Positions 37,460 to 52,292 of a stretch of 64,000 nucleotides of DNA are shown in pieces; position 1 is the stretch's first letter; each line of letters opens with the position of its first letter. The position numbers were made by a program, and so were the translations under genes. Origin of the DNA: Myxococcota bacterium. GTDB taxonomy: Bacteria > Myxococcota_A > UBA9160 > UBA6930. Under the pieces are notes generated by a model. The model ran no database searches. It saw nothing but the letters and a program-made list of their open reading frames with translations, and had not been told where the DNA came from. The DNA is taken from the NCBI GenBank assembly GCA_965223415.1, contig OZ245002.1:3104001-3168000 (forward strand), in the 5' to 3' direction.

Positions 37460-39997
37460 TCAGCGCATCGCCGTCTGGATCCGCGGCACGAAGAAGAACT
37501 CGCCGGGCTCCGCGTCGCCGTGCTTCATCTCCCGGTACTCGGGCACCTGGTCGTAGGGGATCATCGACTTCGCCCGGTAGGACACGCGGGCCGCCACGGC
37601 CTGGTGGAGCTGGCTGCCCCACATGATCTGGTTGTTGGCGCGCAGCACCGAGAGCAGCGCCTCCGCGAAGATCGAGTGCCGGCCGCCGCCGCCGTCGGGG
37701 ATCGGGATCAGCCCGCCCGCGGTGAGCGCCATCCGCACCCGCCGCTTGGCCATGGTGGACATCCAGTGGAGGCGCTCCTTCGAGGTGCGCGCGCCCTCGA
37801 TGGAGATGGCGACGTTGCGGGTGATCACGCCCGAGTAGCAGGAATCGGCCACGATCAGCACGTGCTTCGCGTTCATGGCGCCGACCTGGCGGGTCATCTC
37901 GTCGGTCGAGAGCCACAGCGCCGGGTTGTCGTGCTCCGCGTCGACGGGCAGCCAGTAGCCGCTGTGGGAGCCCTCGTCCAGGTGACCGTGGCCCGCGTAG
38001 TAGACCAGCAGGTTGTCCTTCGAGGTGAGCTTCTTGCGCAGCTGGGCCAGGGCCGTCATCAGCTGGTAGCGGTCGGCATCGAGGAGCGTCGTCACCTCGA
38101 AGCCGTAGCGGTTCGTGAGCACCTGGCCGATCTCCCGCGCGTCGGCGTGGGGTGTCTCCAGGTCGGGCATGTGCGCGTAGTTCTGGTTGCCGATCACGAG
38201 CGCGTGGTAGCTGCCGAACTCGATGCCCGGCGAATCGTCCGGCGGCGGCGCGGCCACCGGCGGGAGCCCGCGCCGCACGACGAAGCTGCGGCTCGACTGC
38301 TTGCCCTGCCGGTCGATCGCCACCAGGGTGACCCGCGTGCCCTCGTCGCCCACCTTCACGACGGGCCGGAACACCAGGCTCTCGTCGGTCTCGACCGGCT
38401 CGCCGTTCAGGGTCAGCGCCTCGAGGCCGGCGGGCGCGATCACCTGGCCGACGATCCGGCGCTCGGCCTCCTCGGCGGTCACCGATTCCTCGCCCCGGGA
38501 GGCCAGCGGCGGAAGCTGGGGATCGACCACGTGGATGGTCGGGCCGGCGATGTCGAGCTTCACCTGGCGCTCGGCTTCGGCGAGCTCCTGCTGGCGGCGG
38601 GCCAGGGCCGCCTCCAGCTCGTCGATCTGGGAGGCGAGCGCCTCCGAGCGCTGGGTCAGGCCCGCGAGGCGCTCTTCCTCGCTGCGGATCTCGGAAGCCC
38701 GCGCGGCGAGCTGCTCCTCCAGCGCGGCGAGCTCGCCGGTCCGGCCCTCGAGCTGCGCCGCCTGCTCCTCCGAGCGGCTCGCCAGGCCCTCGAAGCGCTC
38801 GCGCTCCTGGGCCAGCGCCTCGCGCTCGGCGGCCACGCCGCTGCGCTCCTCCTCGAGGGCGGCACGCTGGCCGTCGAGCTCGGCGCGGGCATCTTCCAGG
38901 GCCTTGCGATCGGCGTCGGTCTGCTGGGAGCGGGCGAAGCGCGCCTCGGCCTCGGCCTCGCGCTCCGTCACGCCGAGCAGCCGGTCGCTCGCAGCGCGAT
39001 CGCGCTCCGCCAGCCGGGCCTGCTCCCGGTCGAGCTCGGCGGCGCGCTCGCGAAGCGCCTGCTTCTCCTGGCGCAGCGATTCCTCCCGGGCGGCCAGGTA
39101 GCTGCGGTCATCCTCGAGCTTGGCGCGATCCCGGTCGAGCTCGCGCCGCTCGCTCTCGATCCCCGCGCGGTCGGCGGCCAGGTCGCCAGCGCCGGTGGCG
39201 GGCGCCTCGCCTTGCGAGGTCGGAGCCTCCGTCAAGCCAGCGAGCTCCTTCTCGAGCCGGCGCACGTCGAGGCGCAGGCGATCCGCCTCGTGCTTGCTCT
39301 CGGAGAGCTGGCTCTCGAGCTGGCTCACGTCCGTGCCGGCCCCTGGCGCCATCACGACGCGGCCTTCCAGCTCGTCGATCCCGTAGGAGTCGAGGTAGAG
39401 GCCGAGGGCGCGCTTCGGGTCCCGCGCGACGCCCAGCCCGCGTTCGTGGAGCCGCGCCAGGGCGCGCTTCGCCTGCCGGTGCCCCTGGCCCGCCGCGCGC
39501 TCGTACCAGCCGGCGGCCTGCCCGTAGTCGGGCGGCGTGCCGAGCCCCTGCTCGTAGATCTCGCCCGCGTAGTACTGGGCCGTCGGGTCGCCCTGCTCCG
39601 CGCGCTCGGTCCAGAACGCCAGCCGCTCCGAGTAGCCGGCCGGATCGTAGGCGACGTACTCTCCGCCGCGGATCTCGCAGTCGAGCTGGCTCGTGCTCAC
39701 GACCCGGGGAGGTGCCACGTAGATGGCCTTGCGACCGAGCTTCCGGGTCGTGCCGCGCAAGAGGCAGTCCACGATCTTGAGCCGGTCGATCGCGGCGGCG
39801 GCCGAGGTGGCCGGGCCGGAGGAGGCGGAGGGCGTGAGCTCCAGCGCCGGCGCGGACGCGACAGACCCGCTCGCCGCCGGGGGATCCAGCGCCACGATCG
39901 AGCGGGTCGCCACCGGCTTGCCACCCGCGCAGGCCAGCAGGGCCAGGGCCGCGAGGAGCGACAGGAAGGACAGGGCGGCGGTTCGGTGCTGGGCCAT
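37460..39997 (-). CDS. Lipoprotein with Sel1-like repeats, long coiled coil and C-terminal caspase-family (C14) peptidase
   Basis: Lipobox LLAC; AQYYAGEIYEQGLG and AAGWYERAAGQG Sel1 repeats; E/R/A-rich heptad region; ALVIGNQNY, YYAGHG (His), ADSCYSG (Cys). Start 39997 chosen on the signal peptide; the frame is open to 40174. Confidence 0.88.
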   Translation of the reverse strand: MAQHRTAALSFLSLLAALALLACAGGKPVATRSIVALDPPAASGSVASAPALELTPSASSGPATSAAAAIDRLKIVDCLLRGTTRKLGRKAIYVAPPRVVSTSQLDCEIRGGEYVAYDPAGYSERLAFWTERAEQGDPTAQYYAGEIYEQGLGTPPDYGQAAGWYERAAGQGHRQAKRALARLHERGLGVARDPKRALGLYLDSYGIDELEGRVVMAPGAGTDVSQLESQLSESKHEADRLRLDVRRLEKELAGLTEAPTSQGEAPATGAGDLAADRAGIESERRELDRDRAKLEDDRSYLAAREESLRQEKQALRERAAELDREQARLAERDRAASDRLLGVTEREAEAEARFARSQQTDADRKALEDARAELDGQRAALEEERSGVAAEREALAQERERFEGLASRSEEQAAQLEGRTGELAALEEQLAARASEIRSEEERLAGLTQRSEALASQIDELEAALARRQQELAEAERQVKLDIAGPTIHVVDPQLPPLASRGEESVTAEEAERRIVGQVIAPAGLEALTLNGEPVETDESLVFRPVVKVGDEGTRVTLVAIDRQGKQSSRSFVVRRGLPPVAAPPPDDSPGIEFGSYHALVIGNQNYAHMPDLETPHADAREIGQVLTNRYGFEVTTLLDADRYQLMTALAQLRKKLTSKDNLLVYYAGHGHLDEGSHSGYWLPVDAEHDNPALWLSTDEMTRQVGAMNAKHVLIVADSCYSGVITRNVAISIEGARTSKERLHWMSTMAKRRVRMALTAGGLIPIPDGGGGRHSIFAEALLSVLRANNQIMWGSQLHQAVAARVSYRAKSMIPYDQVPEYREMKHGDAEPGEFFFVPRIQTAMR

Positions 39998-40841
39998 GAT
40001 GGTGACTCTGCTCTGGTTGGGTGCGTTCGGTTGCGTCGCGTCCCCCTCCGAGCACGCCGAGCATCGTGCCGGGGAGATGGGACTCTCCGCAAGGACCATT
40101 CGCGGGGGTCCGTTCCTCCACCGGGTCTTTGTTGCGCCGCGGACCTCCGCGGCTCGGGAGCAGGGTCGCTCCACGGGCCCCTTCGGATCACGCGGACCTG
40201 GATCACCTGCCGATCGCTTGCACGTCTATCTCGGCGGCGACGGCTCCCCCCGTGGGGCGCTACGCCATCGCCCGCCCGACCCGACGCCGCGGCAGCTCCT
40301 GGTGCTCGAGCTGATGGCCCACGACCCCAACCCGAGCCTCCTTCTGGGGCGCCCATGTTATCACGGGGTCGAGACCTGCGAGCCGGTCCACTGGACCCTG
40401 GGCCGCTACTCCGAGGCCGTCGTCGAGAGCCTGGTGGCCGCCTTCAAGCGGGTCGTGTCACCCGACCGACCGGTCGTCCTGATCGGCCACAGCGGCGGCG
40501 GCACCCTCGCGATGCTGATGGCCCCGCGGCTCCCGCAGGTGGAGGCGGTGGTGACCGTCGCCGGCAACCTGGACGTGGCGGCCTTCACGGAGCATCACGG
40601 GTTCGGGGCGTTCACGGGGTCGCTGGACCCGGCGGCGTTGCCGCCGCTGCCGGAGCGGGTGCGGCAGATGCACCTGGTCGGCGGGCGGGACGAGGTGGTT
40701 CCGCCGGCGATCGTGGAGGCGGCCATTCGGCGGCAGCCGGGAGCGCGAAGGGTCAATTCGCCGGAGAACGGGCACAACGAGGGGTGGGTGACCGTCTGGC
40801 CCAACGTTCTCGAGGTGCTCGAGGATGAGCTCGGCGGGTAG
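39996..40841 (+). CDS. Alpha/beta hydrolase, probable lipoprotein
   Basis: AFGC lipobox-like; HVYLGGDG, GRPCY, GHSGGG nucleophile, AGNLD, D.VVP, GH. Start uncertain. Confidence 0.8.
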   Translation: MMVTLLWLGAFGCVASPSEHAEHRAGEMGLSARTIRGGPFLHRVFVAPRTSAAREQGRSTGPFGSRGPGSPADRLHVYLGGDGSPRGALRHRPPDPTPRQLLVLELMAHDPNPSLLLGRPCYHGVETCEPVHWTLGRYSEAVVESLVAAFKRVVSPDRPVVLIGHSGGGTLAMLMAPRLPQVEAVVTVAGNLDVAAFTEHHGFGAFTGSLDPAALPPLPERVRQMHLVGGRDEVVPPAIVEAAIRRQPGARRVNSPENGHNEGWVTVWPNVLEVLEDELGG

Positions 40842-40888
40842 CAGCTTCATCCGGAGCGTCTCGGACGCCGAGACCGAGCAGGCCTTCG

Positions 40889-41176
40889 AGGGGTGGTGAC
40901 GGTGCTGAGCCGGCCTGCGGTGTCGTAGCCCAGGTCGACGGTCTTGCCGTCCGGGCGGGCCACCTGGGTGAGGTTCTTGTCCAGGTCGCAGGTGAAGAAG
41001 GTTCGCGGGTCGTTCGGGTCCACCGGCGGGGGGTCGTACTCGCCTTCCTGGTCGAGGAGCGTGTAGCGGAAGACGTGGGCGGGCTGGCCGGGGGGCGTGA
41101 GGCTGGTGAGGTTGCCGCGCAGGTCGTAGGTGAAGTCGATGAAGCGGCTGTCGGGCAGCGTCTGGCGCGTGACGCC
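40889..41176 (-). pseudogene. Isolated YD-repeat (RHS/teneurin-like) fragment
   Basis: FTYDLRGNLTSLTPPG, TCDLDKNLTQVARPDG, LGYDTAGRLSTVTTP; ~95 aa with unrelated flanks. Confidence 0.75.
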
Positions 41177-41513
41177 GCAGGCAATGCCGCAGACGGCACC
41201 GACCAGCCCTCCAAACAGCCGTTCCCTACGTGTCATCAGTCCTCGCAGAAGCAGCCCGTCGCGGGATCGTCCTCCTGGTAGACGACCGTGGGCCCGGCGG
41301 AGCACACGTTCGCGTGCCCTCCGAGGACGAGGAGAGGGGCAGGATGGCAGTGGCGCCGTAGCGAGCGGCATGGCCACCTAGCGAAGGGGAGCCACGCACA
41401 TTAGTCGGCGGTCGAGGAGTAGTTCAACCGCAATGAGCGGCAAACACGCTCGGATTCCGACGGAAACCGCCGGATCGCGTCAGACCTACCCCATTCGGGG
41501 GATACGATCCGCC

Positions 41514-42926
41514 CTAGAAGTCGAACCTCGCGCCGACGGTCAACGCGTACTGGTCGACGTAGCTGTCGCCGAGCCGCGTATCGAAGTCGATGAAGGCGAC
41601 CATGCCGCTGGTCAGCACCATGCTCACGCCGGCGCCGACGTTGAACACGTCGCGGTCCGGGCTCTGGGCGCGGAGGCTCAGGCGGGTGCGGTTCAGGTCG
41701 GCAGTGAAGCGGGCGTTGATCGTGCGGGAGTCGTTCTCGAACTCGTGCTCCCACTCGCCGCGCAGGTAGGGCGTGACGATGCCGCTGCCGGTCGAGATGT
41801 CGTAGCTGAGGGTCACGCCGAGGTCCGTCGTCAGGGACGTGATCGACTGGCCCTCGTAGGTGAGGTTCAGGCCCTGAGCACCGCTCTCCCGGGCGCCGTC
41901 GGTATCGACGCCGATGTAGTTCACCTGCAGGTAGGGGTCGATGCCGAGGGCGCCGCTGTCGAGGTTGGCCCCGGCGGCGACGCTCAGGCCCCACTGGTCG
42001 CCGCTCGGGTCGCTGCGCGCCGTCCGGTTCACCGTCGGGTAGACGATGCTGCGCTCGAGGCTGTAGTCCAGGTAGGAGTAGGTCGCGATCGCGTCGACGT
42101 AGAAGGCGTCCTGCTGCCAGGTGCCGTAGGCGGAGAGGCCGTAGGCGTTGCGGTCGAGCTCGCCGGCGCCCCCGTCGAAATCGTTGTCGACGCGGGAGTA
42201 GTTGAACGCCAGGCCGCCCACGAGCGGCTCGCTGAACCGGTAGTCGACACCGACCACCGCGCCGAGGGCGTCGAAGTCGAAGCCGACCTCCTCGTCCCGG
42301 CCGTCGAAGTCGCCCCAGGAGTACAGGCCGTTGCCCCAGAGCCCCCACTTGCCGAGCAGGTCCTGATCCCCCGCGGCGGACCGCTCGCGCAGGGCGCGCT
42401 CGATGTCCTCGCCCTGCAGCGAGCCCCCGTAGGCGTCCCGCAGGTCGAGGCCCGCGAACTGGATGCGCGGGCCGCCTTCGCGCAGGGCCACGAGCCGGTT
42501 GCCGATCACCTCCAGGTTGCGGATGGAGGTCTGGGTCGAGAGGGTGCCGGAGGCCGCCGCCTGGCCGTGGGCCAGGTCCTCGAGGGCCTCGTTGATCTCC
42601 GGGTCCGAGATGTCGAGCAGGCCCGGCACGACGAGCTCGCTGCAGCGATCGAAGAGGTCCTGGGTATCCGCCCCCCAGCCGCGGGTGCCGACGATCGGTG
42701 CCAGGTCGCCGCAGGTGGTGAGGACGAAGTCGCCGCTCAGGCTCTGGAGGCGGCTCTGGCCGCCGAGGGAACCCAGACTCCGCGGAGAGGGCGCCTGCCC
42801 TGCGGGAGCCCCGCCACCGCCACCGCCTCCACCACCGCCGCCCTGGCCGTAGGCCCCGCCGGCGAGGAAGATGCTCGCGATGATGAGCAGGAGCTGAATC
42901 CGGATCGCCCGCGCGCGGACCACCAT
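41514..42926 (-). CDS. Autotransporter-type outer-membrane beta-barrel with very short N-terminal domain
   Basis: Signal peptide, poly-Gly tract, short Cys-pair region, barrel motifs (WGLWGNG, GVDYRF, TPYLRGEWEHEF) and terminal Phe (ARFDF). Confidence 0.88.
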   Translation of the reverse strand: MVVRARAIRIQLLLIIASIFLAGGAYGQGGGGGGGGGGGAPAGQAPSPRSLGSLGGQSRLQSLSGDFVLTTCGDLAPIVGTRGWGADTQDLFDRCSELVVPGLLDISDPEINEALEDLAHGQAAASGTLSTQTSIRNLEVIGNRLVALREGGPRIQFAGLDLRDAYGGSLQGEDIERALRERSAAGDQDLLGKWGLWGNGLYSWGDFDGRDEEVGFDFDALGAVVGVDYRFSEPLVGGLAFNYSRVDNDFDGGAGELDRNAYGLSAYGTWQQDAFYVDAIATYSYLDYSLERSIVYPTVNRTARSDPSGDQWGLSVAAGANLDSGALGIDPYLQVNYIGVDTDGARESGAQGLNLTYEGQSITSLTTDLGVTLSYDISTGSGIVTPYLRGEWEHEFENDSRTINARFTADLNRTRLSLRAQSPDRDVFNVGAGVSMVLTSGMVAFIDFDTRLGDSYVDQYALTVGARFDF

Positions 42927-42969
42927 GTTGACCTCCCTGGGACGACCTCGGCCCGGGCCGTCGCGGGGG

Positions 42970-42999
42970 ATCCTATACCGGGGAAATCCCCAGTGTCAA
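42970..42999 (-). promoter_or_regulatory. Sigma70-like promoter of the autotransporter with a palindromic spacer
   Basis: Minus strand TTGACA-CTGGGGATTTCCCCGG-TATAGGAT; GGAGG RBS before ATG 42926. Confidence 0.65.
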
Positions 43000-43148
43000 A
43001 GGGGGTTACGTCGGATCCTGCGTGGAGATGGGGCACTCCGCCGCCAGGCCCAGTGCCCAGAGACCGGCCAGGCCGAGCCCCAGCAGGAGCCGGGTCGAGC
43101 GCTCCGCCACCAGCCCGGCGCCGTCCCTGGCGCCCGGAAGCCCCGCCG

Positions 43149-43454
43149 GGCGGCGATCTCGAGGGGCTCCTCGAGGAAGCGCTCGACGATCTGCGCCTCG
43201 CCCTCGACTCCTTGCCCCCGGACCAGGCGGACCCGCTGACCCTGCTCGGCCTCCTGCGGCCGCGCCTGGAGCGACGGGTGCGGAGCGCGTCGCTCCGTCT
43301 CGACTGGCGGGTGAGCGACGCCGGGGAGGGCCGGGGCATGGCCAATTTTCGCCACCGCGCCGAGGAGCTCGGCGCCGACCTGCGGATCGAGTCGACCGAC
43401 GCGGGGACGCGCCTGCGGATGGTCTTTCCCGGGCCTGCCGCTACCGCCCCATGA
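43149..43454 (+). pseudogene. Internally deleted remnant of a NarX-like sensor histidine kinase
   Basis: EALDDLRLALDSL...LRPRLERR...LDWRV joined directly to SDAGEGRGMANFRHRAEELGADLRIES..GT; H-box and N-box absent, no convincing start. Confidence 0.65.
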
Positions 43455-43770
43455 AGCGGAGGTGATCCTCGCCCTGGAGGTGGTCGGGCTCGACCCAGTA
43501 GTCGCCGCGAACCGCAGGCAGGAGGATGTCCCGGGCGGCCTGGTCGTCGCCGCCCAGGACCAGCCAGGCGCCCGTGCCGAGCACCGCTCCGCCCGCGGCG
43601 GTGAACGCCTTGATCGGCGTGTAGAGCAGGCTGGCGCCCACGGCGGCGATCCACCAGCCGGCGCCTTCCGTTTCGGCGGCGGCAGGCCGGGGGTGAGCGA
43701 CGAGCACGAGCGCCAGCAGGGCGGCGCAGAGGAGGCCCAGGGGCCTTCGGTTGGTTCGGAGTCGGCGCAT
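43441..43770 (-). CDS. Small exported/membrane hypothetical protein
   Basis: Signal peptide (AAA|E), Gly/Ala-rich hydrophobic hairpin, AVRGDYWVEPDHL tail; lies downstream of the repeat-protein genes. Confidence 0.7.
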   Translation of the reverse strand: MRRLRTNRRPLGLLCAALLALVLVAHPRPAAAETEGAGWWIAAVGASLLYTPIKAFTAAGGAVLGTGAWLVLGGDDQAARDILLPAVRGDYWVEPDHLQGEDHLRFMGR

Positions 43771-43820
43771 CGGAGGTCCTTCCTGTCGGGTTCGGAGGTC
43801 GGGGTTCCGAGAGAAGGGGT

Positions 43821-43851
43821 GGGCCCCGATCCCGCGAGGGGACCGGGGCCC
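43821..43851 (-). terminator. Hairpin downstream of repeat-protein copy 1
   Basis: GGGCCCCG...CGGGGCCC GC-rich stem ~25 nt after the stop. Confidence 0.5.
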
Positions 43852-43875
43852 GGGGTGGGGGAGGGAGCGGACGAG

Positions 43876-44199
43876 CTAGCGGTTGCGGCCGGAGACGGCG
43901 CCCACGGTGCCGACGTTCGACACGGCGGTCGCGCGGTTGGCCGTGGCCTTGGTCGTGATGTCCCGGCTGCGGGTCTTGATCTTGACGTCGCCCTCGAGGC
44001 GCGAACCGGCCATCACGGAACCCACGTGGGCCTCGGCGAGCGCGCGGTTGGCACTGGCCTCGGTGTAGATGTTCCGGGTCCGGGCGTCGATGTCGATGTC
44101 CTTGCTCTTGGTGAAGAGGTCGCCCAGGAAGGCCTGCGCGCTCGCGGCGTAGCCGAGGACCAGGGCGGAGGTGACGAGGATCTGGAAGAAGCGGCGCAT
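43876..44199 (-). CDS. Small secreted two-repeat protein, copy 1 (putative fibre/amyloid subunit)
   Basis: Hidden at the end of track ORF 43876..45261; own RBS AAGGAG and ATG 44199; 107 aa; signal peptide ending AQA. Confidence 0.9.
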   Translation of the reverse strand: MRRFFQILVTSALVLGYAASAQAFLGDLFTKSKDIDIDARTRNIYTEASANRALAEAHVGSVMAGSRLEGDVKIKTRSRDITTKATANRATAVSNVGTVGAVSGRNR

Positions 44200-44310
44200 G
44201 ATGTTGATCTCCTTGGATCGGTTGGGTTGAGGTGGATCGCAACGCGCGATCACGGAGAGGGGTCGCGCTGGCGCGCGCTTCGGATCACGAACCGGCAGGA
44301 AACCGTCGCC

Positions 44311-44351
44311 AAAAAAGAGAAGCGGCGCCGATCCCGGAGGATCGGCGCCGC
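44311..44351 (-). terminator. Intrinsic terminator after copy 2
   Basis: 13-bp perfect stem GCGGCGCCGATCC/GGATCGGCGCCGC followed on the minus strand by TTCTCTTTTTT. Confidence 0.85.
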
Positions 44352-44378
44352 CCTTGGGGGTCGGCTGGCGAGCGGGAG

Positions 44379-44702
44379 CTAGCGGTCGCGGCCCGAGACC
44401 GCGCCCACCACGCCCACGTTCGTCACGGCTGTCGCGTTGTTCGCGCTGGCCTTCGTCGTGATGTCGCCGGTGCGCACCTTGATCTTGACGTCGCCCTCGA
44501 GCCGGGCGCCGGCCATCACCGAACCCACGTGGGTCTCGGCGAGCGCGCGGTTGGCACTGGCCTCGGTGAAGATGTCGCCGGTGCGGGCGTCGATGTCGAT
44601 GTCCTTGCTCTTGGTGACGAGGTCGCCCAGGAAGGCGGACGCGCTGGCGGCGTAGCCCAGGACGAGGGCGGAGGTAATGAGGATCTGGAAGAAGCGGCGC
44701 AT
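44379..44702 (-). CDS. Small secreted two-repeat protein, copy 2 (diverged, 16 of 107 residues differ)
   Basis: RBS AGGAG; signal peptide ending ASA; same 10+37+37 mature layout. Confidence 0.9.
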   Translation of the reverse strand: MRRFFQILITSALVLGYAASASAFLGDLVTKSKDIDIDARTGDIFTEASANRALAETHVGSVMAGARLEGDVKIKVRTGDITTKASANNATAVTNVGVVGAVSGRDR

Positions 44703-44838
44703 GATGGTGATCTCCTAGGGATCTGAAGGGTGGATTGGATGGACCGCGGCCCTGCGGTCCATCGCTGAGGAGTCGGCGCTGGCTCTGTCTCGGATCACGC
44801 GTGACGCAGAAACGCAAGATCCGACCCCGGAATGGGAA

Positions 44839-44868
44839 GCGGCGCCGACCCCGGAGGATCGGCGCCGC
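44839..44868 (-). terminator. Hairpin after copy 3, homologous to the one after copy 2
   Basis: Same stem with one change that gives a U-G wobble on the minus-strand transcript; weak U tail. Confidence 0.65.
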
Positions 44869-44894
44869 CTTGGGGGTCGGCTGGGGAGCGGGAG

Positions 44895-45218
44895 CTAGCG
44901 GTTGCGGCCGGAGACGGCGCCCACGGTGCCGACGTTCGACACGGCGGTCGCGCGGTTGGCCGTGGCCTTGGTCGTGATGTCCCGGCTGCGGGTCTTGATC
45001 TTGACGTCGCCCTCGAGGCGCGAACCGGCCATCACGGAACCCACGTGGGCCTCGGCGAGCGCGCGGTTGGCACTGGCCTCGGTGTAGATGTTCCGGGTCC
45101 GGGCGTCGATGTCGATGTCCTTGCTCTTGGTGAAGAGGTCGCCCAGGAAGGCCTGAGCGCTCGCGGCGTAGCCGAGGACCAGGGCGGAGGTGACGAGGAT
45201 CTGGAAGAAGCGGCGCAT
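44895..45218 (-). CDS. Small secreted two-repeat protein, copy 3 (protein identical to copy 1)
   Basis: RBS AAGGAG, ATG 45218; 107 aa. Confidence 0.9.
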   Translation of the reverse strand: MRRFFQILVTSALVLGYAASAQAFLGDLFTKSKDIDIDARTRNIYTEASANRALAEAHVGSVMAGSRLEGDVKIKTRSRDITTKATANRATAVSNVGTVGAVSGRNR

Positions 45219-45379
45219 GATGTTGATCTCCTTGGATCGGTTGGGTTGAGGTGGATCGCAACGCGCGATCACGGAGAGGGGTCGCGCTGCCCCGGGGGCC
45301 GGATCACCGACCGGCAAGAAAATCCGCCCGGATCGTTGTATGAAAGGGGGCCCACGGCGGGATGGAGGGCGGAGGGTCG

Positions 45380-46273
45380 ATGGCGGAAGGCGCGGCAGCG
45401 GTCGGCGATCTCCTCGACCGCGCCGTCGCGGGCCAGGAGACCGCCCTCCTCCAGCTGGCTCGGCGAGTCACCTCCCTCATCGAGGGATGGGGCGCCTACA
45501 CCGTCCAGAGCGACTGGCGGATCCTCACCCAGGAGGCCACCCAGCAGGCCCTGGACGGCTGGCGGAGCAGCCGCCGGGAGGCCCAGGCCGCCCAGTTCCT
45601 GGAGGGGATCGTCCGAAACCGCTTCTGGGGCGAGGTGTTGGACGAGATGTCCCAGAACAACCCGCGGGCCGGCGAGCTCCTCTTCCCCACCATCCGCCGG
45701 CTCCTGGCCCGCTGGGACGGCTCCCGGCGCTTCGAGGCCAGCTGGGACGACGTCGTCCAGGAGGCCACCCACCAGCTCTGGGAGCGCTGGGCTACTGGCG
45801 AGGTGGAGCGGCCCTGGTCCCTCCTGTGCACCATCGCCAAGCGGCGCTTCCTCGATCAGACCCGGAGGGCCAAGGCCACGGAGGATCCGGAGATCCTGGA
45901 CGACCTCTCTGAAGAGGGCGAGGAATCCCCCGGGGGAGAGGTGTTCGCCCAGCAAGCGCTGGACGTGCTAGAGCCCGAGGAGCGGGGCATCGTCGTGCGG
46001 ATGGACATCGAGGGGCAGACCCGCGTCGAGATCGCGAGGGAGCTCGAGATGACCGAGGGCCAGGTGCTCTCGATCCGGCGCGCCGGGCTTCGGCGGATCT
46101 GGCGCTGGGCGGGGGCCGACCTTCCGCCGGAGATCCGGGACGTCTGGGAGGCGATGTTCAAGGGCGCCAAGCGGGCGGGCCCGGAGCAGGTGGCCGCCCA
46201 GCTGGGAATCACCCCCGGGGAAGTCGAGCAGCGGGTCGAGCAGGCCCGGGTGCTCCTGGGGCTGGCGGGATGA
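45380..46273 (+). CDS. ECF-like sigma-70 family factor with duplicated region 2- and region 4-like segments
   Basis: WDDVVQEA...LCTIAKRRFLD (region 2); LEPEER...EIARELEMTEGQV (region 4); GGAGG before ATG 45380. Confidence 0.8.
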   Translation: MAEGAAAVGDLLDRAVAGQETALLQLARRVTSLIEGWGAYTVQSDWRILTQEATQQALDGWRSSRREAQAAQFLEGIVRNRFWGEVLDEMSQNNPRAGELLFPTIRRLLARWDGSRRFEASWDDVVQEATHQLWERWATGEVERPWSLLCTIAKRRFLDQTRRAKATEDPEILDDLSEEGEESPGGEVFAQQALDVLEPEERGIVVRMDIEGQTRVEIARELEMTEGQVLSIRRAGLRRIWRWAGADLPPEIRDVWEAMFKGAKRAGPEQVAAQLGITPGEVEQRVEQARVLLGLAG

Positions 46274-46364
46274 GGGGTCCGGAATTTCGCGATCGGGTGA
46301 TCCGAATGGGGGGGGTGGCGCGACCTTGGTGCGAATGCCCCCACCTCATCTCGGGAGTGAGCCG

Positions 46365-47159
46365 ATGAGCGAACCCAATGACCCTCGCCTCGAGGGCGAC
46401 GACGCCTTCGAGGACGAGCTCGACCGCGCCACCGTCCTGCGGCTGCGCGGCGAGGACCCCCGCGCCGACCGCTGGCAGCCGGAGGACCAGGATCTGGTCC
46501 AGTTCGCGCGGAACCCCCGCGCCCTGGCGCCGGAGCTGCGCGCGCGGATCGACGCCTACCTGGAGAAGCACCCGGCCGAGCGCGACGCCCTGGCCGCCTT
46601 CGAGGTGCTCGCGCCGGCCCCGCCGGTGGCCGAGGCCGCCGAGGCGCCGTCGCTCCTGGCCCGCCTCACCTCTTCCCTCGCCGCCCTGGTGCCCGCTCCC
46701 CGGGCCGTCGCCTCCGCCGCGGCGCTCTTCCTGGTGGCCGGCGTGGGCTTCCTCCTGACCCAGGAGCCGGACGAGCCCGTCTGGCGGGGCCCGGACACGC
46801 CGATCGAGGATCCGATCGGCGGCCCGGACACCGGGCACCCGCCCCTCGACCTGGCCGAGATCGAGCTGGTCCCCGGCGTCGTGATGCCCCTGGAGGCCGC
46901 CTCCCTGCCCACGGCGGGCGAGGTGCTGCTGATCCTCGTCCTGCCCGGTGAGCCCCCGGAGGCGCCCGTCGAGCTGACCCTCCTCCGGGAAGGCGCCGCC
47001 GAGCCCCTGGCCCAGCGGAGCGCCCCCGCCTCCGAGGGGCCCGCCCCCGCCGTCCAGCTGCGTGTACCCGCCGAAGACCTCGAGCCCGGCGCCTACCGGG
47101 TGGAGGTCTTCGAAGGGCCTGCCGTCCCGCCGGTCGAGTTCCTCTTCGAGGTGAGGTGA
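46365..47159 (+). CDS. Putative single-pass membrane anti-sigma factor
   Basis: Directly after the sigma gene; N-terminal helical domain, TM (AAALFLVAGVGFLL), periplasmic Ig-like tail (LEPGAYRVEV). Confidence 0.65.
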   Translation: MSEPNDPRLEGDDAFEDELDRATVLRLRGEDPRADRWQPEDQDLVQFARNPRALAPELRARIDAYLEKHPAERDALAAFEVLAPAPPVAEAAEAPSLLARLTSSLAALVPAPRAVASAAALFLVAGVGFLLTQEPDEPVWRGPDTPIEDPIGGPDTGHPPLDLAEIELVPGVVMPLEAASLPTAGEVLLILVLPGEPPEAPVELTLLREGAAEPLAQRSAPASEGPAPAVQLRVPAEDLEPGAYRVEVFEGPAVPPVEFLFEVR

Positions 47160-47239
47160 TCCGGGCGCCCCCGTCGGGCGACTCTCCCCAAGAGAGCCCG
47201 CGGGAATCCCCCCGCGGCTCCCGCCCGGAAGGAACGGCC

Positions 47240-47554
47240 ATGCTGAAGCGCATCCTCTCCATCCTCGCCCTGACCGGGGTCGCCTGCGGCGGCACGCCGT
47301 CGGCGGCCGACGACGGCAAGCCGGTCACGGTCTGCCGGCACGACGCCCAGGGCACCGTGGCCGTCACGAACATCGGCAGCGTGGGCCCCGGCTCCGGCAG
47401 CACGCGGGTTCGCGTCGTGACCGGCAACCGGACGACCGTTGTCGATCCCGAGGGGGAGTGCGTCTTCACCGACGAGCCGCCGCGCCGCCATCCCCTCCGA
47501 GGGGGGGAGGCGAACTTCCCCCGGACGCCCGACGCTTCCGAGGTGCGGAGGTGA
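47240..47554 (+). CDS. Small secreted protein/lipoprotein
   Basis: AAGGA RBS; MLKRILSILALTGVAC signal; AVTNIGSV motif; Cys pair in the mature part. Confidence 0.7.
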   Translation: MLKRILSILALTGVACGGTPSAADDGKPVTVCRHDAQGTVAVTNIGSVGPGSGSTRVRVVTGNRTTVVDPEGECVFTDEPPRRHPLRGGEANFPRTPDASEVRR

Positions 47555-47616
47555 TCCGAGTCGCCGCCTCGCGCGACTCCTCTCGGGGCACGCAGCCCCC
47601 AGCAAAGGAGACCGAC

Positions 47617-47913
47617 ATGGGACGCAAACTCGCCGCCTTCGCCATCATTCCGATGATGCTCTTCGCGGGATCCGCCACCGCGAAGATCAACGAGGGCAAC
47701 ACCTCCGCCAAGAGCAAGCTGAACGTCCTGAAGGCCAAGACGTCGCACCGCCTCAAGGCCGATGAGGGGCAGGACCCCTGCAACCAGAGCCTGAACGCGG
47801 GCAACGTGATCATTCCCGAGGGCACCCGCGCTCCCCGCGAGGTGACCGTCGTGATCGAGGGAGACGTGACCAATGTTGGTTCGATCGTTGGCTCCGCGCG
47901 CTGCCGCCGCTAG
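47617..47913 (+). CDS. Small secreted protein
   Basis: AAGGAG RBS; signal peptide ending ATA; EVTVVIEGDVTNVGSIV; Cys pair. Confidence 0.78.
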   Translation: MGRKLAAFAIIPMMLFAGSATAKINEGNTSAKSKLNVLKAKTSHRLKADEGQDPCNQSLNAGNVIIPEGTRAPREVTVVIEGDVTNVGSIVGSARCRR

Positions 47914-49453
47914 CCGCCTCTTCATGGCCGCCGCCCTGGCGCTGCTCTTCGGAGCCTGCGCCACTCCCGGCAACCAGGCTGCCTACACCAGCCGCACGCC
48001 GGGGCTCGACCCCCAGACGACCCGCACGGTCTACTCCGGCGCGCTGGCCTGCATGGACGACCTGCTCCAGTCCTACGGGCCCCAGGGCACGATCATCACC
48101 AGCGTCGGCATCCCGGACGCGACCGGTCAGGTCCAGGTGGGCTCCCGCGACATGCTGATGTCGGCGATCTCCGACATGACACGGCGGAGCGGTGCCTTCA
48201 CCTACGTCGACCTCGACGTCACTCGCGAGGAGTCGCTGGCCATCCACGGCAACTCGCCGGACAAGACCTCGCTCTGGCCCACGTACCTGATCCGCGGGAC
48301 GATCTCGGGCCTCGACGAGAGCGTCATCGACGTGTCGAAGGGCCTGAGCTTCGGCGTGGAGCTCAGTGAGAACGATGCCGCCGCGGCCTACGCCAACAGC
48401 CGCACCTCGTCGGTGGTGTCCCTCGACCTTTTCATCGTGCGCTCGAAGGACCTGGTGCTCCTGCCCGGCCTCAAGGCGAGCAACTCGCTGGCGATCAGCC
48501 GCGCGGGCTCGGCCAGTGAAGCCGGGATCACGATCAAGCAGGTGGGCCTCGACTTCAGCGTCGAGCAGGAGGAGTCCGAGAGCCTGGCTCACGCGGTGCG
48601 CACGCTGATCGAGCTCGGCACTGTCGAGCTGATCGGCAAGTTCGCCCAGGTGCCCTACTGGCGCTGTCTCCAGGTCGAGGGGACGAACCCCGTGGTGATG
48701 AAGGAGGCGGCCGACTGGTACGCCGACATGGACGAGGACGAGAAGATCCTCTTCAGCCAGCGCGTGCTGATCGCGCGGGGCGAGTTCGCCGGGCCCGCCA
48801 CCGGCGAGCTGGACGCCGCCACCAAGGCCGCCATCGTCCGCTACCAGCAGGTGAACGGGCTGATCCCGACCGGTCGGCTCTCCTTCGAGCTCTACCACTC
48901 GATGCTCGGCAACGATCGCCCTGCCGAGGTGGGGGAGCCGGTCACGTTCATCGAGCAGGACGAGACGCCCGACCCGGTGGCGGACCAGGTGCCCGTGCGC
49001 GAGCCCCTGCTCCTGACGCTCACGTCGGCGCGTGGATCCCAGCCGAGCTTCGCGCCGAACGAGATGCTGAGCATCCAGGTCGGCGCGTCGCGGGACGCCT
49101 ACGTGTACTGCTACTACCGGGACGGCGCCGATCGCATCTCGCGCATCTACCCGAACCAGTTCCAGCCCGATCCCTATCTGCCGGCGGGCCAGTACGTAAC
49201 GGTTCCGCCCGTCGACGCCGCGGGACACCCCACGCGCTTCGGCATCCGCTTCGAGCATCCCGGCGCGGCGGAGGAGGTCGCCTGCCTCGCCTCGGACCGG
49301 GAGGTCGGCATCTGGCTGCCCCGGACGCTGAAGCAGCGGGATCTCGCCCCGCTGCCCGTCGGGAGCCTGGCCGAGCTCGAGGCCGCCTTCGAAGAGCTCG
49401 ACGGCGAAGGCCTCGTCCGCGCGCGGCTGCCCATCGAAGTGACCCGCGAGTAG
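47873..49453 (+). CDS. CsgG/HfaB-like lipoprotein + peptidoglycan-binding domain + DUF4384-like domain
   Basis: Lipobox FGAC; ALACMD...IPDATG...DMLMSAIS...IRGTISGLD...VVSLDL resembles HfaB/CsgG; TGELDAATKAAIVRYQ..NGL.PTG is PG_binding_1-like; RDAYVYCYY..G...RIYPN is DUF4384-like. Alternative start 47924. Confidence 0.75.
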   Translation: MLVRSLAPRAAAASRLFMAAALALLFGACATPGNQAAYTSRTPGLDPQTTRTVYSGALACMDDLLQSYGPQGTIITSVGIPDATGQVQVGSRDMLMSAISDMTRRSGAFTYVDLDVTREESLAIHGNSPDKTSLWPTYLIRGTISGLDESVIDVSKGLSFGVELSENDAAAAYANSRTSSVVSLDLFIVRSKDLVLLPGLKASNSLAISRAGSASEAGITIKQVGLDFSVEQEESESLAHAVRTLIELGTVELIGKFAQVPYWRCLQVEGTNPVVMKEAADWYADMDEDEKILFSQRVLIARGEFAGPATGELDAATKAAIVRYQQVNGLIPTGRLSFELYHSMLGNDRPAEVGEPVTFIEQDETPDPVADQVPVREPLLLTLTSARGSQPSFAPNEMLSIQVGASRDAYVYCYYRDGADRISRIYPNQFQPDPYLPAGQYVTVPPVDAAGHPTRFGIRFEHPGAAEEVACLASDREVGIWLPRTLKQRDLAPLPVGSLAELEAAFEELDGEGLVRARLPIEVTRE

Positions 49454-49513
49454 CGCGGCTGCTCATCTGCACCCGCGAGCAACCCCTCACCCATCCTTCC
49501 TGGAGACACGATC

Positions 49514-50068
49514 ATGAGCTTCCGAATGCGACGGCCGGCGTGGGTCGCTGGCCTGATCCTGGGTCTGCTGCTGGGCCTTCCGCTCGGCGCAGCCGCCCAG
49601 GACACCCTCCCGACCGCCCCGGTCCGGATGTACGACGAGCCCCTCTCGGCCGACGAGCTGGCCCAGAAGCTCTTTCCGCCCAAGCTCCGCTCGATCGTCC
49701 CGGTCGAGGAGCAGCCGAAGCCCGAGGTGATCGGCTACGCGATCCAGTTCGGCTTCGACTCGGCGGAGCTCCTGCCCGCGGCGAAGCCCTACCTGGACGA
49801 GCTCGGCAAGATGATGAACCTGGAGCGGCTCTCGAGCGCGAGCCTGGTCGTCGAAGGCCACACGGACGCGATCGGCTCCGAGGACTACAACCTCGACCTG
49901 TCGCTGCGACGGGCCCAGGCCGTGGCCGGCTACCTGGCGAAGGCGCACCGCATCGACCCGAACCGCCTCGTGACCCAGGGCCGCGGCGAGAGCCGGCCGC
50001 TGCCGGACCGGGCGCCGACCGATGGCCAGAACCGCCGCGTCCAGTTCGGCGGCCTCGGCGCTCGTTAG
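49514..50068 (+). CDS. OmpA/MotB C-terminal domain protein, secreted
   Basis: IQFGFDSAEL, VEGHTDAIGSEDYNLDLSLRRA, GRGESRP, NRRVQF. Confidence 0.93.
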   Translation: MSFRMRRPAWVAGLILGLLLGLPLGAAAQDTLPTAPVRMYDEPLSADELAQKLFPPKLRSIVPVEEQPKPEVIGYAIQFGFDSAELLPAAKPYLDELGKMMNLERLSSASLVVEGHTDAIGSEDYNLDLSLRRAQAVAGYLAKAHRIDPNRLVTQGRGESRPLPDRAPTDGQNRRVQFGGLGAR

Positions 50069-50084
50069 GTCAGGGAGCCTACCC

Positions 50085-52292
50085 GTGGTCCGTAGCCTCC
50101 TGGTTGCCCTCGCCGCACTCGCGGCCCTGTTCGGTAGCGTCGCTCCCGGCTGGGCCGCGAAGCGGGCCCTGATCGTCGGGATCAACGACTACCGGGGCGA
50201 GAACAGCGGTGGGCGCTGGCGCGACCTCCGCGGCGCCGTGAACGACGCCGAGGCCATGCGCTCGCTGCTGGTCTCCCGCTTCGGCTTCGCGGGGGACGAC
50301 GTGGTGCTGCTGCGCGACGCCGAGGCGACCCGGGAGCGCATCCTCGCCGAGATCGAGGGGCACCTGGTCGCTCCGGCGAAGCCCGGCGACGTCGCCTTCT
50401 TCCACTTCGCCGGTCACGGCTCCCAGGTGCGCAACGCCCAGGGCCAGGAGCTCGATCGGCTGGACGAGACGATCGTCCCCGCCGATTCGCGGCTGGGCGC
50501 GCCGGACATCCGCGACAAGGAGCTGCGGGTCCGCTTCAACGACGTGCTCGACCGGGGTGCCGACCTGGTCGCCGTCTTCGACAGCTGCAGCAGCGGCTCC
50601 ATCCTGCGCTCGCTCCAGGCGGTGCGCTTCCTGCCGCCGGGCGACGCGCCGGCTCCCGCCCTGGCGCCGGAGCGCCGGGCGCCGCCGGAGGAGCGCGGCG
50701 CGCTGCTGCTCTCCGCCGCCTCGAGCGGGCTGCCTGCCGCCGAGACGAAGGACGCCGCCGGCCGGCCTCGCGGCGCCCTGAGCTTCGCCCTGATCCGCGC
50801 CCTGCGGGAGGCGGCGCTGGACGAGCCCGCGGACCAGCTCTTCCTGCGCGTGCGCAGCGCGCTGCTGGCCGAGGACCTGGGCCAGGCCCCGGTGCTCGCC
50901 GCCACCTCCGAGCGTCGCGCCCGCCCGCTGCTCGGCGGGGAGGCGCAGGCGGCGGGCGCGACCCGGGTCGGCGTCCTGCGCGTCCGCAGCGACGGCCTCG
51001 TCGAACTCGACGCCGGCGCGGCCAGCGGCCTGAACCCGGGGGCCGAGCTGGTCTCGAACCGCATTGGCGATACGCGCCGGCTGCGCGTGGTCGAGGTGCC
51101 GGGCGTCGCCCTGGCCCTGGCCCGGGTGAGCGGCGGCGATGCGGCGTCGCTCCAGCCGGGCGATCTCTTCCGTCTCGACCGTTGGAGCGCCCCGGACGGC
51201 GCCGCGCTGCGCATCCTGCTGCCCGAAGCGGCGCCGCCCGCCCAGGGGAAGGCGCTTCACGCCGCCGCCGCGGCACTGCGCGTCGAGGCCGCCGCCCGGG
51301 GCGTGACCTGGGTCGAGGATCCGACCACCCAGCGCCCGACCCACCGCCTGGTGTGGCGGGCGGCCGGCGGCTGGATGCTTCGCGGGCCCGACGCCGAGCA
51401 GCCCGTCGGTGCGCTCGACCCGGCGCGCGCCGCCTCCCTCGTCTCCGGGCTGCCGCAGGGCGCGAGCCTGCTCGTGGAACTTCCCCCCGCCCCGGGCCTG
51501 CGCCGCGCCCTCGCCGAGCGGGCCGCGGCCGCCGGAGGCTCCATCGAGCTGGTCGGCCCGGAGGCGGCCCACTTCGCGCTCGTCGGCGTCCTGCGCGGCG
51601 ACGGCGTTCACCACGCCTGGGTGCGGCCCGGGGCTTCGCTTCGCCGTGAGGTCGGCGGGCTCCCGCCGCGCAGCGACTGGACGAAAGCCCAGGGTGCGAG
51701 CGCTGCCCTCGGCGCCTCCCTCGACGCGCTGCTGCGCATCCGCTCGTGGCTGACGCTTCCGGCGCCGCCCGACGAGGGGCGCTTCCCCTACCGCCTCGCC
51801 CTGCGCCGCGAGAGTGACGGCCGCCGCGTTCCCGGCGGCGCCGTGCGCGCCGGCGAGCGCTACCGCATCGCCCTCGAGGCCGAGCGCCCGGGGCCGCGCT
51901 CATCGATCGAGCCGCGCTACGTCTACGTCTTCGCCATCGACGCCTTCGGCCGCCAGGCGCTGGTGTTCCCGACCGCTGACCGCGGCAACGCCGAGAACCG
52001 CATGCCGCCCCCGGGCGCCCTCGGCGCCCCCGCGCCGCCGGTGCTTCCCGTCGGCTCGATCGAGATCGCGCCGCCCTTCGGCCACGAGACCCTGGTCATG
52101 GTCACCAGCGCCACGCCCTTGGCCGACCCCCGGGTCCTCGAGGGCCGCGGCGTCCGCACCCGCACCGGCTCCGCCCTCGAGCAGCTGCTCGGCTGGGTCG
52201 GTACCCCGTCCCGCGCGCCCCGTACCGCCACCCCCACCAGCTGGGGCATCCAGCGGCTCTCCCTCGTGAGCCTGCCCCGTCAAGGAGAGTGA
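50085..52292 (+). CDS. Secreted caspase-family (metacaspase-like C14) protease with C-terminal DUF4384-like domain
   Basis: Signal peptide; KRALIVGINDY, LRGAVNDA, HFAGHGSQ (His), DETIVPAD, FDSCSSG (Cys); YVYVFAID..G...LVFP and IAPPFGHETL at the C-terminus. Confidence 0.9.
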   Translation: MVRSLLVALAALAALFGSVAPGWAAKRALIVGINDYRGENSGGRWRDLRGAVNDAEAMRSLLVSRFGFAGDDVVLLRDAEATRERILAEIEGHLVAPAKPGDVAFFHFAGHGSQVRNAQGQELDRLDETIVPADSRLGAPDIRDKELRVRFNDVLDRGADLVAVFDSCSSGSILRSLQAVRFLPPGDAPAPALAPERRAPPEERGALLLSAASSGLPAAETKDAAGRPRGALSFALIRALREAALDEPADQLFLRVRSALLAEDLGQAPVLAATSERRARPLLGGEAQAAGATRVGVLRVRSDGLVELDAGAASGLNPGAELVSNRIGDTRRLRVVEVPGVALALARVSGGDAASLQPGDLFRLDRWSAPDGAALRILLPEAAPPAQGKALHAAAAALRVEAAARGVTWVEDPTTQRPTHRLVWRAAGGWMLRGPDAEQPVGALDPARAASLVSGLPQGASLLVELPPAPGLRRALAERAAAAGGSIELVGPEAAHFALVGVLRGDGVHHAWVRPGASLRREVGGLPPRSDWTKAQGASAALGASLDALLRIRSWLTLPAPPDEGRFPYRLALRRESDGRRVPGGAVRAGERYRIALEAERPGPRSSIEPRYVYVFAIDAFGRQALVFPTADRGNAENRMPPPGALGAPAPPVLPVGSIEIAPPFGHETLVMVTSATPLADPRVLEGRGVRTRTGSALEQLLGWVGTPSRAPRTATPTSWGIQRLSLVSLPRQGE

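Follow-up and report, generated by a model that had tools for sequence, protein, structure and literature searches.

Secreted two-repeat proteins encoded near a divergent CsgG-like lipoprotein in a Myxococcota genome: candidate subunits of a curli-like fibre system

What purpose is served by three closely related, very small secreted proteins encoded in tandem is the question raised by a locus of a Myxococcota bacterium (contig OZ245002.1). The locus lies in a stretch of 64,000 nucleotides at positions 3,104,001 to 3,168,000, referred to here as the window, which has a GC content of 70.7%. Each of the three genes encodes a 107-residue protein whose mature part is dominated by two 37-residue repeats. 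An earlier interpretation made from the letters alone, the sequence-only reading, proposed that these repeats are two stacked beta-arch rungs that would favour head-to-tail polymerisation into a fibre. The analysis described here leads us to favour, at a probability of about 0.5, a new subunit family of a curli-like fibre system, in which two-rung subunits would stack on one another, would be expressed under the control of an extracytoplasmic function (ECF) sigma factor and would be exported or anchored by a CsgG-like lipoprotein.

The signal peptide of the 107-residue proteins was called by eye and is typical in appearance, with MRR, a hydrophobic core and AQA before FLGD. The 84-residue mature chain that follows consists of 10 + 37 + 37 residues and contains no Cys, Pro, Gln or Trp. 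Repeats 1 and 2 align without gaps and are identical at 17 of 37 positions, a value that was reached in none of 100,000 shuffles (shuffle maximum 11). Every detail of this description that we checked in the sequence-only reading proved correct, as did its observation that D3, D5 and E14 of repeat 1 stand opposite Lys in repeat 2 of the window proteins. The net charges of repeats 1 and 2 are −2 and +6 in the protein encoded by the first and third genes (P0001) and −4 and +3 in the variant encoded by the second (P0002).

Comparison across the family separated the conserved part of this charge pattern from the part that is peculiar to this genome. Repeat 2 is acidic in six of seven close homologues checked (net −1 to −3) and +1 in the seventh, acidic residues predominate at positions 3 and 5 of either repeat in the close homologues, and no excess of opposite charges was found at positions 3, 5 and 7 across 39 family members. 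By contrast, position 14 carries opposite charges in 15 of the 39 proteins and like charges in none; shuffling gave a mean of 4.5 opposite pairs, and 15 was reached in none of 20,000 shuffles, which ignore the relatedness of the proteins. The pair reads E/K in the window; close homologues have K/E, and several distant lineages show K/E, R/E, E/R or E/K. That complementarity is kept while polarity flips fits a contact between equivalent positions of stacked rungs, and in a polymer the pair would form an unbroken alternating ladder. The D/E-K ladder of the sequence-only reading thus survives at position 14, whereas its D3/K and D5/K pairs are not conserved.

The monomer modelled with AlphaFold2 from a 25-sequence alignment was all-beta, with a mean predicted local distance difference test score (pLDDT) of 78 and means of 82-95 for ten-residue blocks over residues 31-100. 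Predicted strands recur at an offset of exactly 37 in both pairs (35-48/72-85 and 54-59/91-96). In DSSP terms, an unbroken 14-residue strand runs through the conserved K-T-G-D turn, from which we infer parallel in-register rungs rather than a hairpin, the strand assignment and not the coordinates being the basis of this reading. A two-rung solenoid is, on these models, the likely fold of the mature chain.

Four copies of residues 24-107, modelled with a 39-sequence alignment, gave an interface score (ipSAE, interaction prediction score from aligned errors) of 0.73 in each of three runs, compared with 0.00 as the best of three controls with unrelated proteins. The runs had at least 90% of their contacts in common, with partner pLDDT values of 77-79. 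Calibration of the tool, which was carried out with two copies and not four, had placed 20 of 30 same-chain pairs and one of 23 single-chain proteins at or above the mark. In the modelled interface, residues 68-102 of one chain lie on residues 32-63 of the next, and the tightest contacts all run from i to i−37 (81-44, 96-59, 95-58, 74-37, 83-46, 97-60, 85-48, 75-38 and 79-42). Through contacts that include 85-55, 83-57 and 88-53, strands 44-48 and 53-59 face each other in the model, which is the arrangement of a beta-arch. The model thus supports binding with repeat 2 of one chain placed in register, head to tail, on repeat 1 of its neighbour. Sequence searches of the PDB reveal no similar complex, which makes it unlikely that the stacking score reflects a relative memorised by the predictor.

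Modelling of the monomer and of multimers had been suggested with the sequence-only reading, which took a globular or alpha-helical model, or membership of a known non-polymerising family, as contrary outcomes; no match of these kinds was found, and the monomer and four-copy models both have the expected features. Of the proposal itself, the rungs and their stacking are present in models, and polymerisation draws on those models together with genomic context. We consider the odds of fibre formation to be slightly better than even.

The three genes lie on the reverse strand as a three-copy direct DNA repeat with spacings of 503 and 516 nucleotides. Copy 1 (43876..44199) and copy 3 (44895..45218) differ at one of 324 nucleotides, a synonymous change, and both encode P0001. 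Copy 2 (44379..44702) differs from copy 1 at 41 of 324 nucleotides and at 16 residues, so that the two proteins are 85% identical. Copies 1 and 3 are the more basic, with a net charge of +5 for the mature chain compared with 0, counted by eye, for copy 2. The TGD turn of the family is kept by copy 2 in both repeats, and Arg and Asn are found there in copies 1 and 3. It is a matter of speculation whether copies 1 and 3 on the one hand and copy 2 on the other represent major and minor subunits.

Each gene is preceded by its own ribosome-binding site (RBS; AAGGAG or TAGGAG) and followed, ∼25 nucleotides 3' of the stop codon, by a hairpin on the same strand that none of 200 shuffled sequences folded as well as. 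That after copy 1 is a GC-rich, terminator-like stem of 13 bp (43821..43851; z −3.55), that after copy 2 is a 15-bp stem followed by a T-run (44320..44353; z −4.52), and that after copy 3 is a 15-bp stem (44837..44870; z −4.75). The presence of an RBS and a hairpin for each gene argues for three separate transcription units. No Rfam RNA family was matched within 40000-56000, and no sigma-70 consensus promoter was found around the array. The array genes look real, judged by their high GC content at third codon positions (GC3, 0.96-0.97), their RBSs and their relatives in other DNA. In the list of open reading frames (ORFs), copy 1 appears only as the tail of a 461-residue open frame (43876-45261), as the sequence-only reading had pointed out, and the case illustrates how small genes in high-GC genomes are lost beneath longer spurious open frames.

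A word-indexed search of 5.8 billion clusters returned eight close relatives at 54-69% identity, all from metagenomes or unnamed contigs, and an exhaustive phmmer search of 1.84 billion representatives returned 18 distant relatives at E ≤ 1e-3, all of 79-114 residues. A profile search gave 30 matches, none with a Pfam domain, among which the only organism names were Thalassobaculum salexigens and Myxococcales metagenome-assembled genomes (MAGs). The consensus repeat unit is DVDIDVKTGDVTTEANGNNATAETNIGSVGAGTKVEG. A single-repeat hidden Markov model found exactly two repeats in 50 of 51 stored family proteins, the lone exception being P0050, which has 187 residues and three to four repeats. The sequence-only reading had left family distribution and variation in repeat number to a homology search, and the answer is a rare family (about 50 proteins, in a few dozen clusters among billions) with an almost invariant two-repeat layout.

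Searches of Pfam, NCBIfam and PDB sequences gave no real match for P0001, P0002 or the family profile. The best family-library matches, Apo-CII (E 0.015) and YPDG_rpt (E 0.018), were both below cut-off and were set aside, as was an ESM Atlas result in which the top rows for P0001 were unnamed clusters and one “putative DUF3060”, all at 0.89, which is a lead only; DUF3060 was absent among the Pfam matches listed. None of 7,999 candidates of 201-2000 residues scored as a longer relative, which the tool rates as weak evidence. Patterns of the close family had no true match in 185,579 representative genomes, where the sole locus returned (L001, from a Flavobacteriales MAG) was rejected as a chance FTKSKDID match inside a 411-residue protein. 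On plasmids, tblastn with P0001, P0040 and the 97-residue Azospirillum lipoferum protein described below returned nothing or the record of the query itself. No description of this two-repeat family, or of a system combining CsgG, PG_binding and DUF4384 domains, was found in the literature. We regard it as very probable that this is a real, new protein family.

Two entries of the set call for comment in their own right. P0041, a secreted two-repeat protein of 108 residues, is labelled at source as “ABC-type transporter Mla ... ATPase subunit MlaF”, a name that cannot fit such a protein and is probably a mislabel. P0010, of 126 residues, does not begin like a signal peptide, and its second repeat is broken, so that it resembles a P0009-type sequence altered by a frameshift or by mis-assembly.

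On the forward strand, 2.7 kb from the array and downstream of the same promoter-like motif, a gene at 47873..49453 encodes a 526-residue lipoprotein (lipobox LLFGAC) with a putative N-terminal domain of the CsgG/HfaB superfamily, recognized with Pfam, NCBIfam and hhalign, and with PG_binding_1 and DUF4384 in its C-terminal half according to Pfam. The true start may be the Met codon at 47924, before the lipobox. Over the first 290 residues, the Pfam CsgG model matched with an E value of 0.0064 and 16.2 bits, which is below the cut-off of 20.8, and the NCBIfam HfaB model matched the protein with an E value of 3e-5 and 23.3 bits, far short of the cut-off of 300. CsgG clusters were also returned for the lipoprotein by ESM Atlas at 0.88, which is a lead only. 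When the PDB was searched with the domain by phmmer, DsbD (E 1.5) was the sole match and was discarded.

A tblastn search of plasmids and chromids returned two homologues of this lipoprotein, both from Azospirillum, at 38.5% and 32.6% identity (locus L002, 8896-10455; locus L003, 8917-10488). Both are CsgG-like lipoproteins with PG_binding_1 and DUF4384 and are annotated only as “DUF4384 domain-containing protein”. The Pfam CsgG model matched them with E values of 0.0062 and 0.015; HfaB matched that of Azospirillum ramasamyi at 8e-6 and did not match the other. Alignment of the three homologues by hhalign with E. coli CsgG alone gave a probability of 26% and an E value of 7e-4, colinear over 211 columns. 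With nine CsgG/HfaB proteins (that of E. coli K-12 and eight from plasmids), the probability was 97.3% and the E value 2.1e-11 over 233 columns; this alignment starts at the lipobox Cys, reaches the end of the CsgG domain and takes in the segments that align with the two membrane hairpins of CsgG. On the strength of these profile alignments, we take the N-terminal domain as a real, remote homologue of the CsgG/HfaB superfamily.

A gene for an OmpA-family protein comes after the CsgG-like gene in the window (49514..50068, forward strand) and at each of the two Azospirillum loci; the Azospirillum OmpA proteins are 42% (E 2e-26) and 36% (E 6e-17) identical to that of the window. The module of A. 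ramasamyi has genes for an ECF sigma factor and a zf-HC2 anti-sigma factor upstream and one for a DUF4384 protein downstream. In A. lipoferum 4B, the cluster, located on a chromid, opens with a gene for a 97-residue secreted protein of two repeats of ∼36 residues, which matches the family profile with 27.3 bits and an E value of 2.3e-7 among 1,330 six-frame ORFs. The CsgG-like gene has the same orientation and lies 1.7 kb further downstream. Only two homologues of the lipoprotein could be retrieved, and one of them has a member of this very rare family beside it, so that the arrangement is strong, though single, evidence of a functional link.

The start codon of each array gene lies ∼60-67 nucleotides downstream of an ECF-type promoter-like motif, GTGATCCG-N16-CGAC[CT]CC. 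On the reverse strand, the motif in the form GTGATCCG-N16-CGACCCC is found at 44259..44288 (60 nucleotides upstream of copy 1), and the same motif occurs at 44769..44798 (67 nucleotides upstream of copy 2) and 45278..45307 (60 nucleotides upstream of copy 3). The strict pattern TGATCC-N15-19-GACYCC occurs eight times in the window compared with 0.27 expected, and none of 100 shuffles contained eight. With looser matches, there are 11 sites, all within 40190-54702, a 15-kb island, and in 10 of the 11 an RBS and an ORF start follow within 20-67 nucleotides (ORF GC3 0.87-0.97).

The genes behind these sites are very mixed. On the reverse strand, the sites at 44287, 44797 and 45306 precede the three array genes, those at 53454 and 53890 precede a 63-residue Cys-rich protein (CxxC...CxxC; 53214-53405) and a 112-residue protein (53479-53817), and the site at 40190, for which no RBS and start were found within range, precedes a Sel1/caspase-like protein (37460-40174). 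On the forward strand, the site at 46298 precedes a 264-residue protein (46365-47159), that at 47157 a 104-residue exported protein (47240-47554), that at 47552 a 98-residue secreted protein (47617-47913) with the CsgG-like gene directly after, that at 53927 an alpha/beta hydrolase (53975-54658) and that at 54674 a 60-residue ORF (54722-54904). The island looks like a compact ECF regulon.

Divergently transcribed from copy 3, a forward-strand gene at 45362..46273 encodes an ECF-type sigma-70 family factor with Sigma70_r2 and Sigma70_r4 domains (TIGR02937, 49.3 bits compared with a cut-off of 42.9). A factor with sigma-70 regions 2 and 4 thus lies beside a shared bipartite motif, as is characteristic of an ECF regulon, and its position makes it the candidate reader of the motif. 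No promoter motif is present ahead of the sigma gene itself. The 264-residue protein encoded directly after it (46365..47159, forward strand, motif ahead) has one hydrophobic segment and, from its position, is possibly an anti-sigma factor. At 303 residues, the sigma factor is long for the ECF type, and a stretch of it recurs internally at both the DNA and the protein level (45529-45562 and 45757-45790; QEATQQALDGW and QEATHQLWERW), as if part of region 2 had been duplicated.

These observations can be combined in the following scheme, which would constitute the curli-like system that we favour. The three genes would supply subunits of a new Sec-exported family, two identical and basic and one a neutral variant. 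Each 37-residue repeat would form one rung of a two-rung beta-solenoid, with strands at repeat positions 2-6, 11-15 and 20-29 and with small or hydrophobic side chains turned to the inside. Repeat 2 of one subunit would then be placed onto repeat 1 of the next in register, and the alternating Glu and Lys at position 14 would zip the rungs into a cross-beta fibre to which every subunit contributes two rungs. Each gene would be its own transcription unit under an ECF-type motif common to at least eight other sites of the island. The divergent CsgG/HfaB-like protein, as an outer-membrane lipoprotein, would export or anchor the subunits as CsgG does curlin and HfaB does HfaA; we hold this last step tentatively, at a little short of even odds. 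A fibre of this kind may serve in a matrix, in adhesion or in the envelope.

Several points weigh against this scheme. Both the fold and the head-to-tail stacking come from prediction, and programs of this kind are prone to pile solenoid-like chains on one another; calibration of the complex tool, too, was done with two copies rather than four. Foldseek returned nothing significant, the best E values being 2.6 for the PDB and 0.23 for viral models; the solenoids that headed the PDB list (FapC, HET-s, bactofilin and left-handed beta-helices) fell short of significance and were given no weight. The matches of the CsgG-like domain stand below the library cut-offs, and a single-sequence AlphaFold2 model of that domain was unusable (pLDDT 32.8). 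No CsgE, CsgF, CsgB, CsgC, Fap, HfaA or HfaD was found in Pfam and NCBIfam scans of the neighbours and small proteins. The Azospirillum loci lack the promoter motif, and the sigma factor and putative anti-sigma factor of the window are not similar to those of Azospirillum. In A. ramasamyi, no two-repeat gene lies within 9 kb of the module of CsgG-like, OmpA and DUF4384 genes, which indicates that the module can exist without this family. Within the repeats, Asp is conserved at positions 1 and 10, where 29 and 26 of the 39 proteins, respectively, are like-charged; on stacking, these residues would repel one another unless their role is to cap turns or to bind cations. A Cys pair near the C-terminus is present in about half of the family, though not in the window subfamily (Cys is the commonest residue at positions 23 and 34 of repeat 2, in 20 and 24 of the 39 proteins, respectively), and this pair could act as a cap.

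Taken together, some of these points would suit a different protein, namely a soluble, non-polymerising two-rung solenoid of the periplasm or surface, made in bulk as an ECF envelope-stress product that binds cations, peptidoglycan or lipid, with the CsgG-like lipoprotein belonging to a separate complex. ECF regulons are typically envelope responses, and the island encodes OmpA-type and peptidoglycan-binding domains; the invariant Asp residues at positions 1 and 10 could bind cations, the Cys pair of many members could cap the end of the solenoid, and the module of A. ramasamyi manages without a two-repeat gene. Such a solenoid would, however, have open edges, with only 10 N-terminal and ∼4 C-terminal residues in addition to the two rungs, and it is these edges that stack in the four-copy model while controls score 0.00. 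The charge pair at position 14 is equally satisfied between chains, and three copies with a promoter and a terminator each suggest a bulk structural product. We consider this main rival unlikely on balance, with an appreciable chance of being right, and return to the curli-like subunit as the preferred interpretation.

The surroundings of the array raise the possibility of a different partner. An autotransporter-barrel protein of 470 residues is encoded at 41514-42926 on the reverse strand; its passenger is only ∼180 residues long, and a run of 11 Gly residues follows directly after its signal peptide. Between it and copy 1 lies a gene for a 109-residue protein (43441-43770, reverse strand), directly downstream of copy 1, with a signal-like N-terminus and Gly/Ala-rich hydrophobic stretches; the protein matches no known family, and the gene has no promoter motif of its own. 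That the 107-residue proteins partner this barrel, or another outer-membrane protein, as a surface coat with no tie to the CsgG-like lipoprotein would accord with the strong beta-domain match (Pfam E 1.4e-65), the short passenger with its poly-Gly run and the location of the gene ∼0.95 kb downstream on the same strand with a single gene between. Yet no promoter motif precedes the autotransporter gene, the A. lipoferum locus ties the family to CsgG-like and OmpA genes and not to an autotransporter, and autotransporter barrels export their own passenger. A partnership of this type is accordingly judged quite improbable.

Small size, a signal peptide, tandem paralogues and the lack of a known family are also what might be expected of secreted bioactive peptides, bacteriocin-like or signalling, amplified by tandem duplication. 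Here, however, no immunity, processing or ABC-export gene is found nearby, the strict two-repeat layout, the inward small or hydrophobic residues and the confident beta core look structural, and the scans, which did not include PADLOC, gave no match to a bacteriocin or PADLOC-type family. This explanation is thought highly improbable.

Two small genes precede that for the CsgG-like lipoprotein, each with the promoter motif ahead. The first (47240..47554, forward strand) encodes a 104-residue exported protein, possibly a lipoprotein, containing the segment TVAVTNIGSVG, which is a weak match to one family repeat (E 0.045 and 3.4e-3) and is a lead only. The second (47617..47913, forward strand), directly upstream of the CsgG-like gene, encodes a 98-residue secreted protein that ends GDVTNVGSIVGSARCRR and is not significant against the family profile (E 1.1). 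By eye, an element TN[IV]GS[IV]G or QNIGVV, resembling the end of the family repeat, is present in the 104- and 98-residue proteins and in a protein encoded at 7283-7663 of locus L003. BLASTP of the 98- and 104-residue proteins against a 126-residue A. lipoferum protein gave no alignment. The small exported proteins upstream of CsgG-like genes could be single-repeat partners, or the likeness could be due to chance.

Downstream of the OmpA gene and in the same direction, the next gene (50022..52292, forward strand) encodes a caspase-like (Peptidase_C14) protein with a C-terminal DUF4384 domain. The starts of the longest ORFs overlap the preceding genes by 41-47 nucleotides here (49514-50068 and 50022-52292) and at the CsgG-like gene (47617-47913 and 47873-49453), and the real starts probably lie further downstream. 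Two Peptidase_C14 caspase-like proteins in fact flank the island, the other being that encoded at 37460-40174 on the reverse strand, which has Sel1 repeats and a long coiled-coil-like stretch. Both have sub-threshold matches to the NCBIfam family “caspase, EACC1-associated type”. A related caspase-like N-terminus is present on a 904-residue protein in the same neighbourhood of A. ramasamyi, and papers that mention DUF4384 have titles mostly concerned with caspase homologues.

In working principle, the systems that appear closest to that of the window are curli, the Caulobacter holdfast anchor and Fap. Like CsgA and CsgB, the window subunit is Sec-exported and built of imperfect repeats, each predicted here to be one cross-beta layer, with paralogous subunit genes, and a CsgG-superfamily lipoprotein is encoded near the array as it is in curli. 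The repeats of the window protein are, in contrast, of 37 residues compared with ∼20, with two per subunit compared with five; its CsgG-like protein is very divergent and carries additional PG_binding_1 and DUF4384 domains; and an ECF sigma factor would take the place that CsgD has in the control of curli. Curlin_rpt was not matched at E ≤ 10 by P0001 or P0002, nor was it among 25 of the 30 families matched by 25 members, and hhalign of the family with E. coli CsgA and CsgB aligned only 6 and 12 columns, respectively, of signal peptide.

The best NCBIfam match of the CsgG-like domains of the window and A. ramasamyi is HfaB of the Caulobacter HfaA/HfaB/HfaD system (3e-5 and 8e-6), with scores far below the equivalog cut-off (23-25 compared with 300 bits). 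Small secreted genes directly upstream of the lipoprotein gene are a further likeness. P0001 and P0002 matched no NCBIfam model, HfaA included, except weakly YPDG_rpt, and neither HfaD nor genes for holdfast synthesis turned up in the window. In the accessible part of one account of the holdfast anchor, the small, secreted, curlin-like HfaA forms heat- and SDS-resistant multimers and depends on HfaB, a CsgG-like lipoprotein and translocon (PMC6707917).

For Fap, the portion of a report available to us describes repeats of ∼35-40 residues, each forming one cross-beta layer, with unlike repeats stacking through complementary charges (PMC12392863). Repeat length, charge complementarity between unlike layers and major and minor paralogues resemble what is seen or proposed for the window system, whose protein differs in having no long linkers, two repeats rather than three, no conserved Asn/Gln core and no Gln in the mature chain. 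The FapC chains in the PDB (9nqd and 9u4u) were not found by sequence or profile search, and the fold match was not significant (E 2.6, template-modelling score 0.12). Neither a Fap family nor a FapF-type gene was found among 16 neighbours. The remark in the sequence-only reading that FapC repeats are of similar length with a different signature therefore holds, and the signature of CsgA differs as well.

In subunit design, the closest parallel is HET-s, which has two pseudo-repeats and two windings per molecule, the windings of the window protein being predicted. HET-s also has charge pairs between equivalent positions of its two repeats. It is a cytoplasmic, eukaryotic signalling protein whose 21-residue repeats are joined by a loop, whereas the window protein is exported and bacterial with contiguous 37-residue repeats; the two are not similar in sequence, and the fold hit to 2rnm was not significant (E 5.2). 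An architecture of the HET-s type is suggested in the window by the strand offsets of 37 and the i to i−37 contacts between chains, both features of the models, and by the covariation at position 14. As described in the accessible part of one source, HET-s(218-289) has two pseudo-repeats, each forming one beta-solenoid winding, which gives two rungs per subunit, and is templated by a single-repeat partner, NWD2 R0 (PMC8280340). This templating has a parallel in the weak single-repeat match of the 104-residue protein encoded at 47240-47554.

Membership by sequence fails for curli, Hfa, Fap and HET-s alike, and the proteins are therefore filed as a new subunit family with a curli-like way of working and a divergent CsgG-type lipoprotein. 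A bolder version would make this a third, independent type of functional amyloid in Gram-negative bacteria, with a HET-s-like subunit, a CsgG-like lipoprotein tied to peptidoglycan by its PG-binding domain, an ECF switch, the single-repeat protein encoded at 47240-47554 as a membrane-bound template and copy 2 as a minor or nucleating subunit; this is a doubtful extension, to which we nevertheless attach some weight.

To our knowledge, only two secreted fibre-amyloid systems, curli and Fap, are well described in Gram-negative bacteria, and the subunits of both are long, multi-repeat proteins. If the reading favoured here is true, a minimal 84-residue, two-rung subunit with an in-register charge code would be a tractable model for how amyloid is built deliberately without mis-stacking, and would provide a compact scaffold for engineered protein fibres. 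With a CsgG-like domain fused to peptidoglycan-binding and DUF4384 domains, the lipoprotein would extend the diversity known among CsgG-type channels and would give a first functional handle on DUF4384. The link to Azospirillum may, in addition, bear on the amyloid-like matrix of strains that lack csgA and csgG, as the accessible part of a report on Azospirillum baldaniorum describes (PMC13723633).

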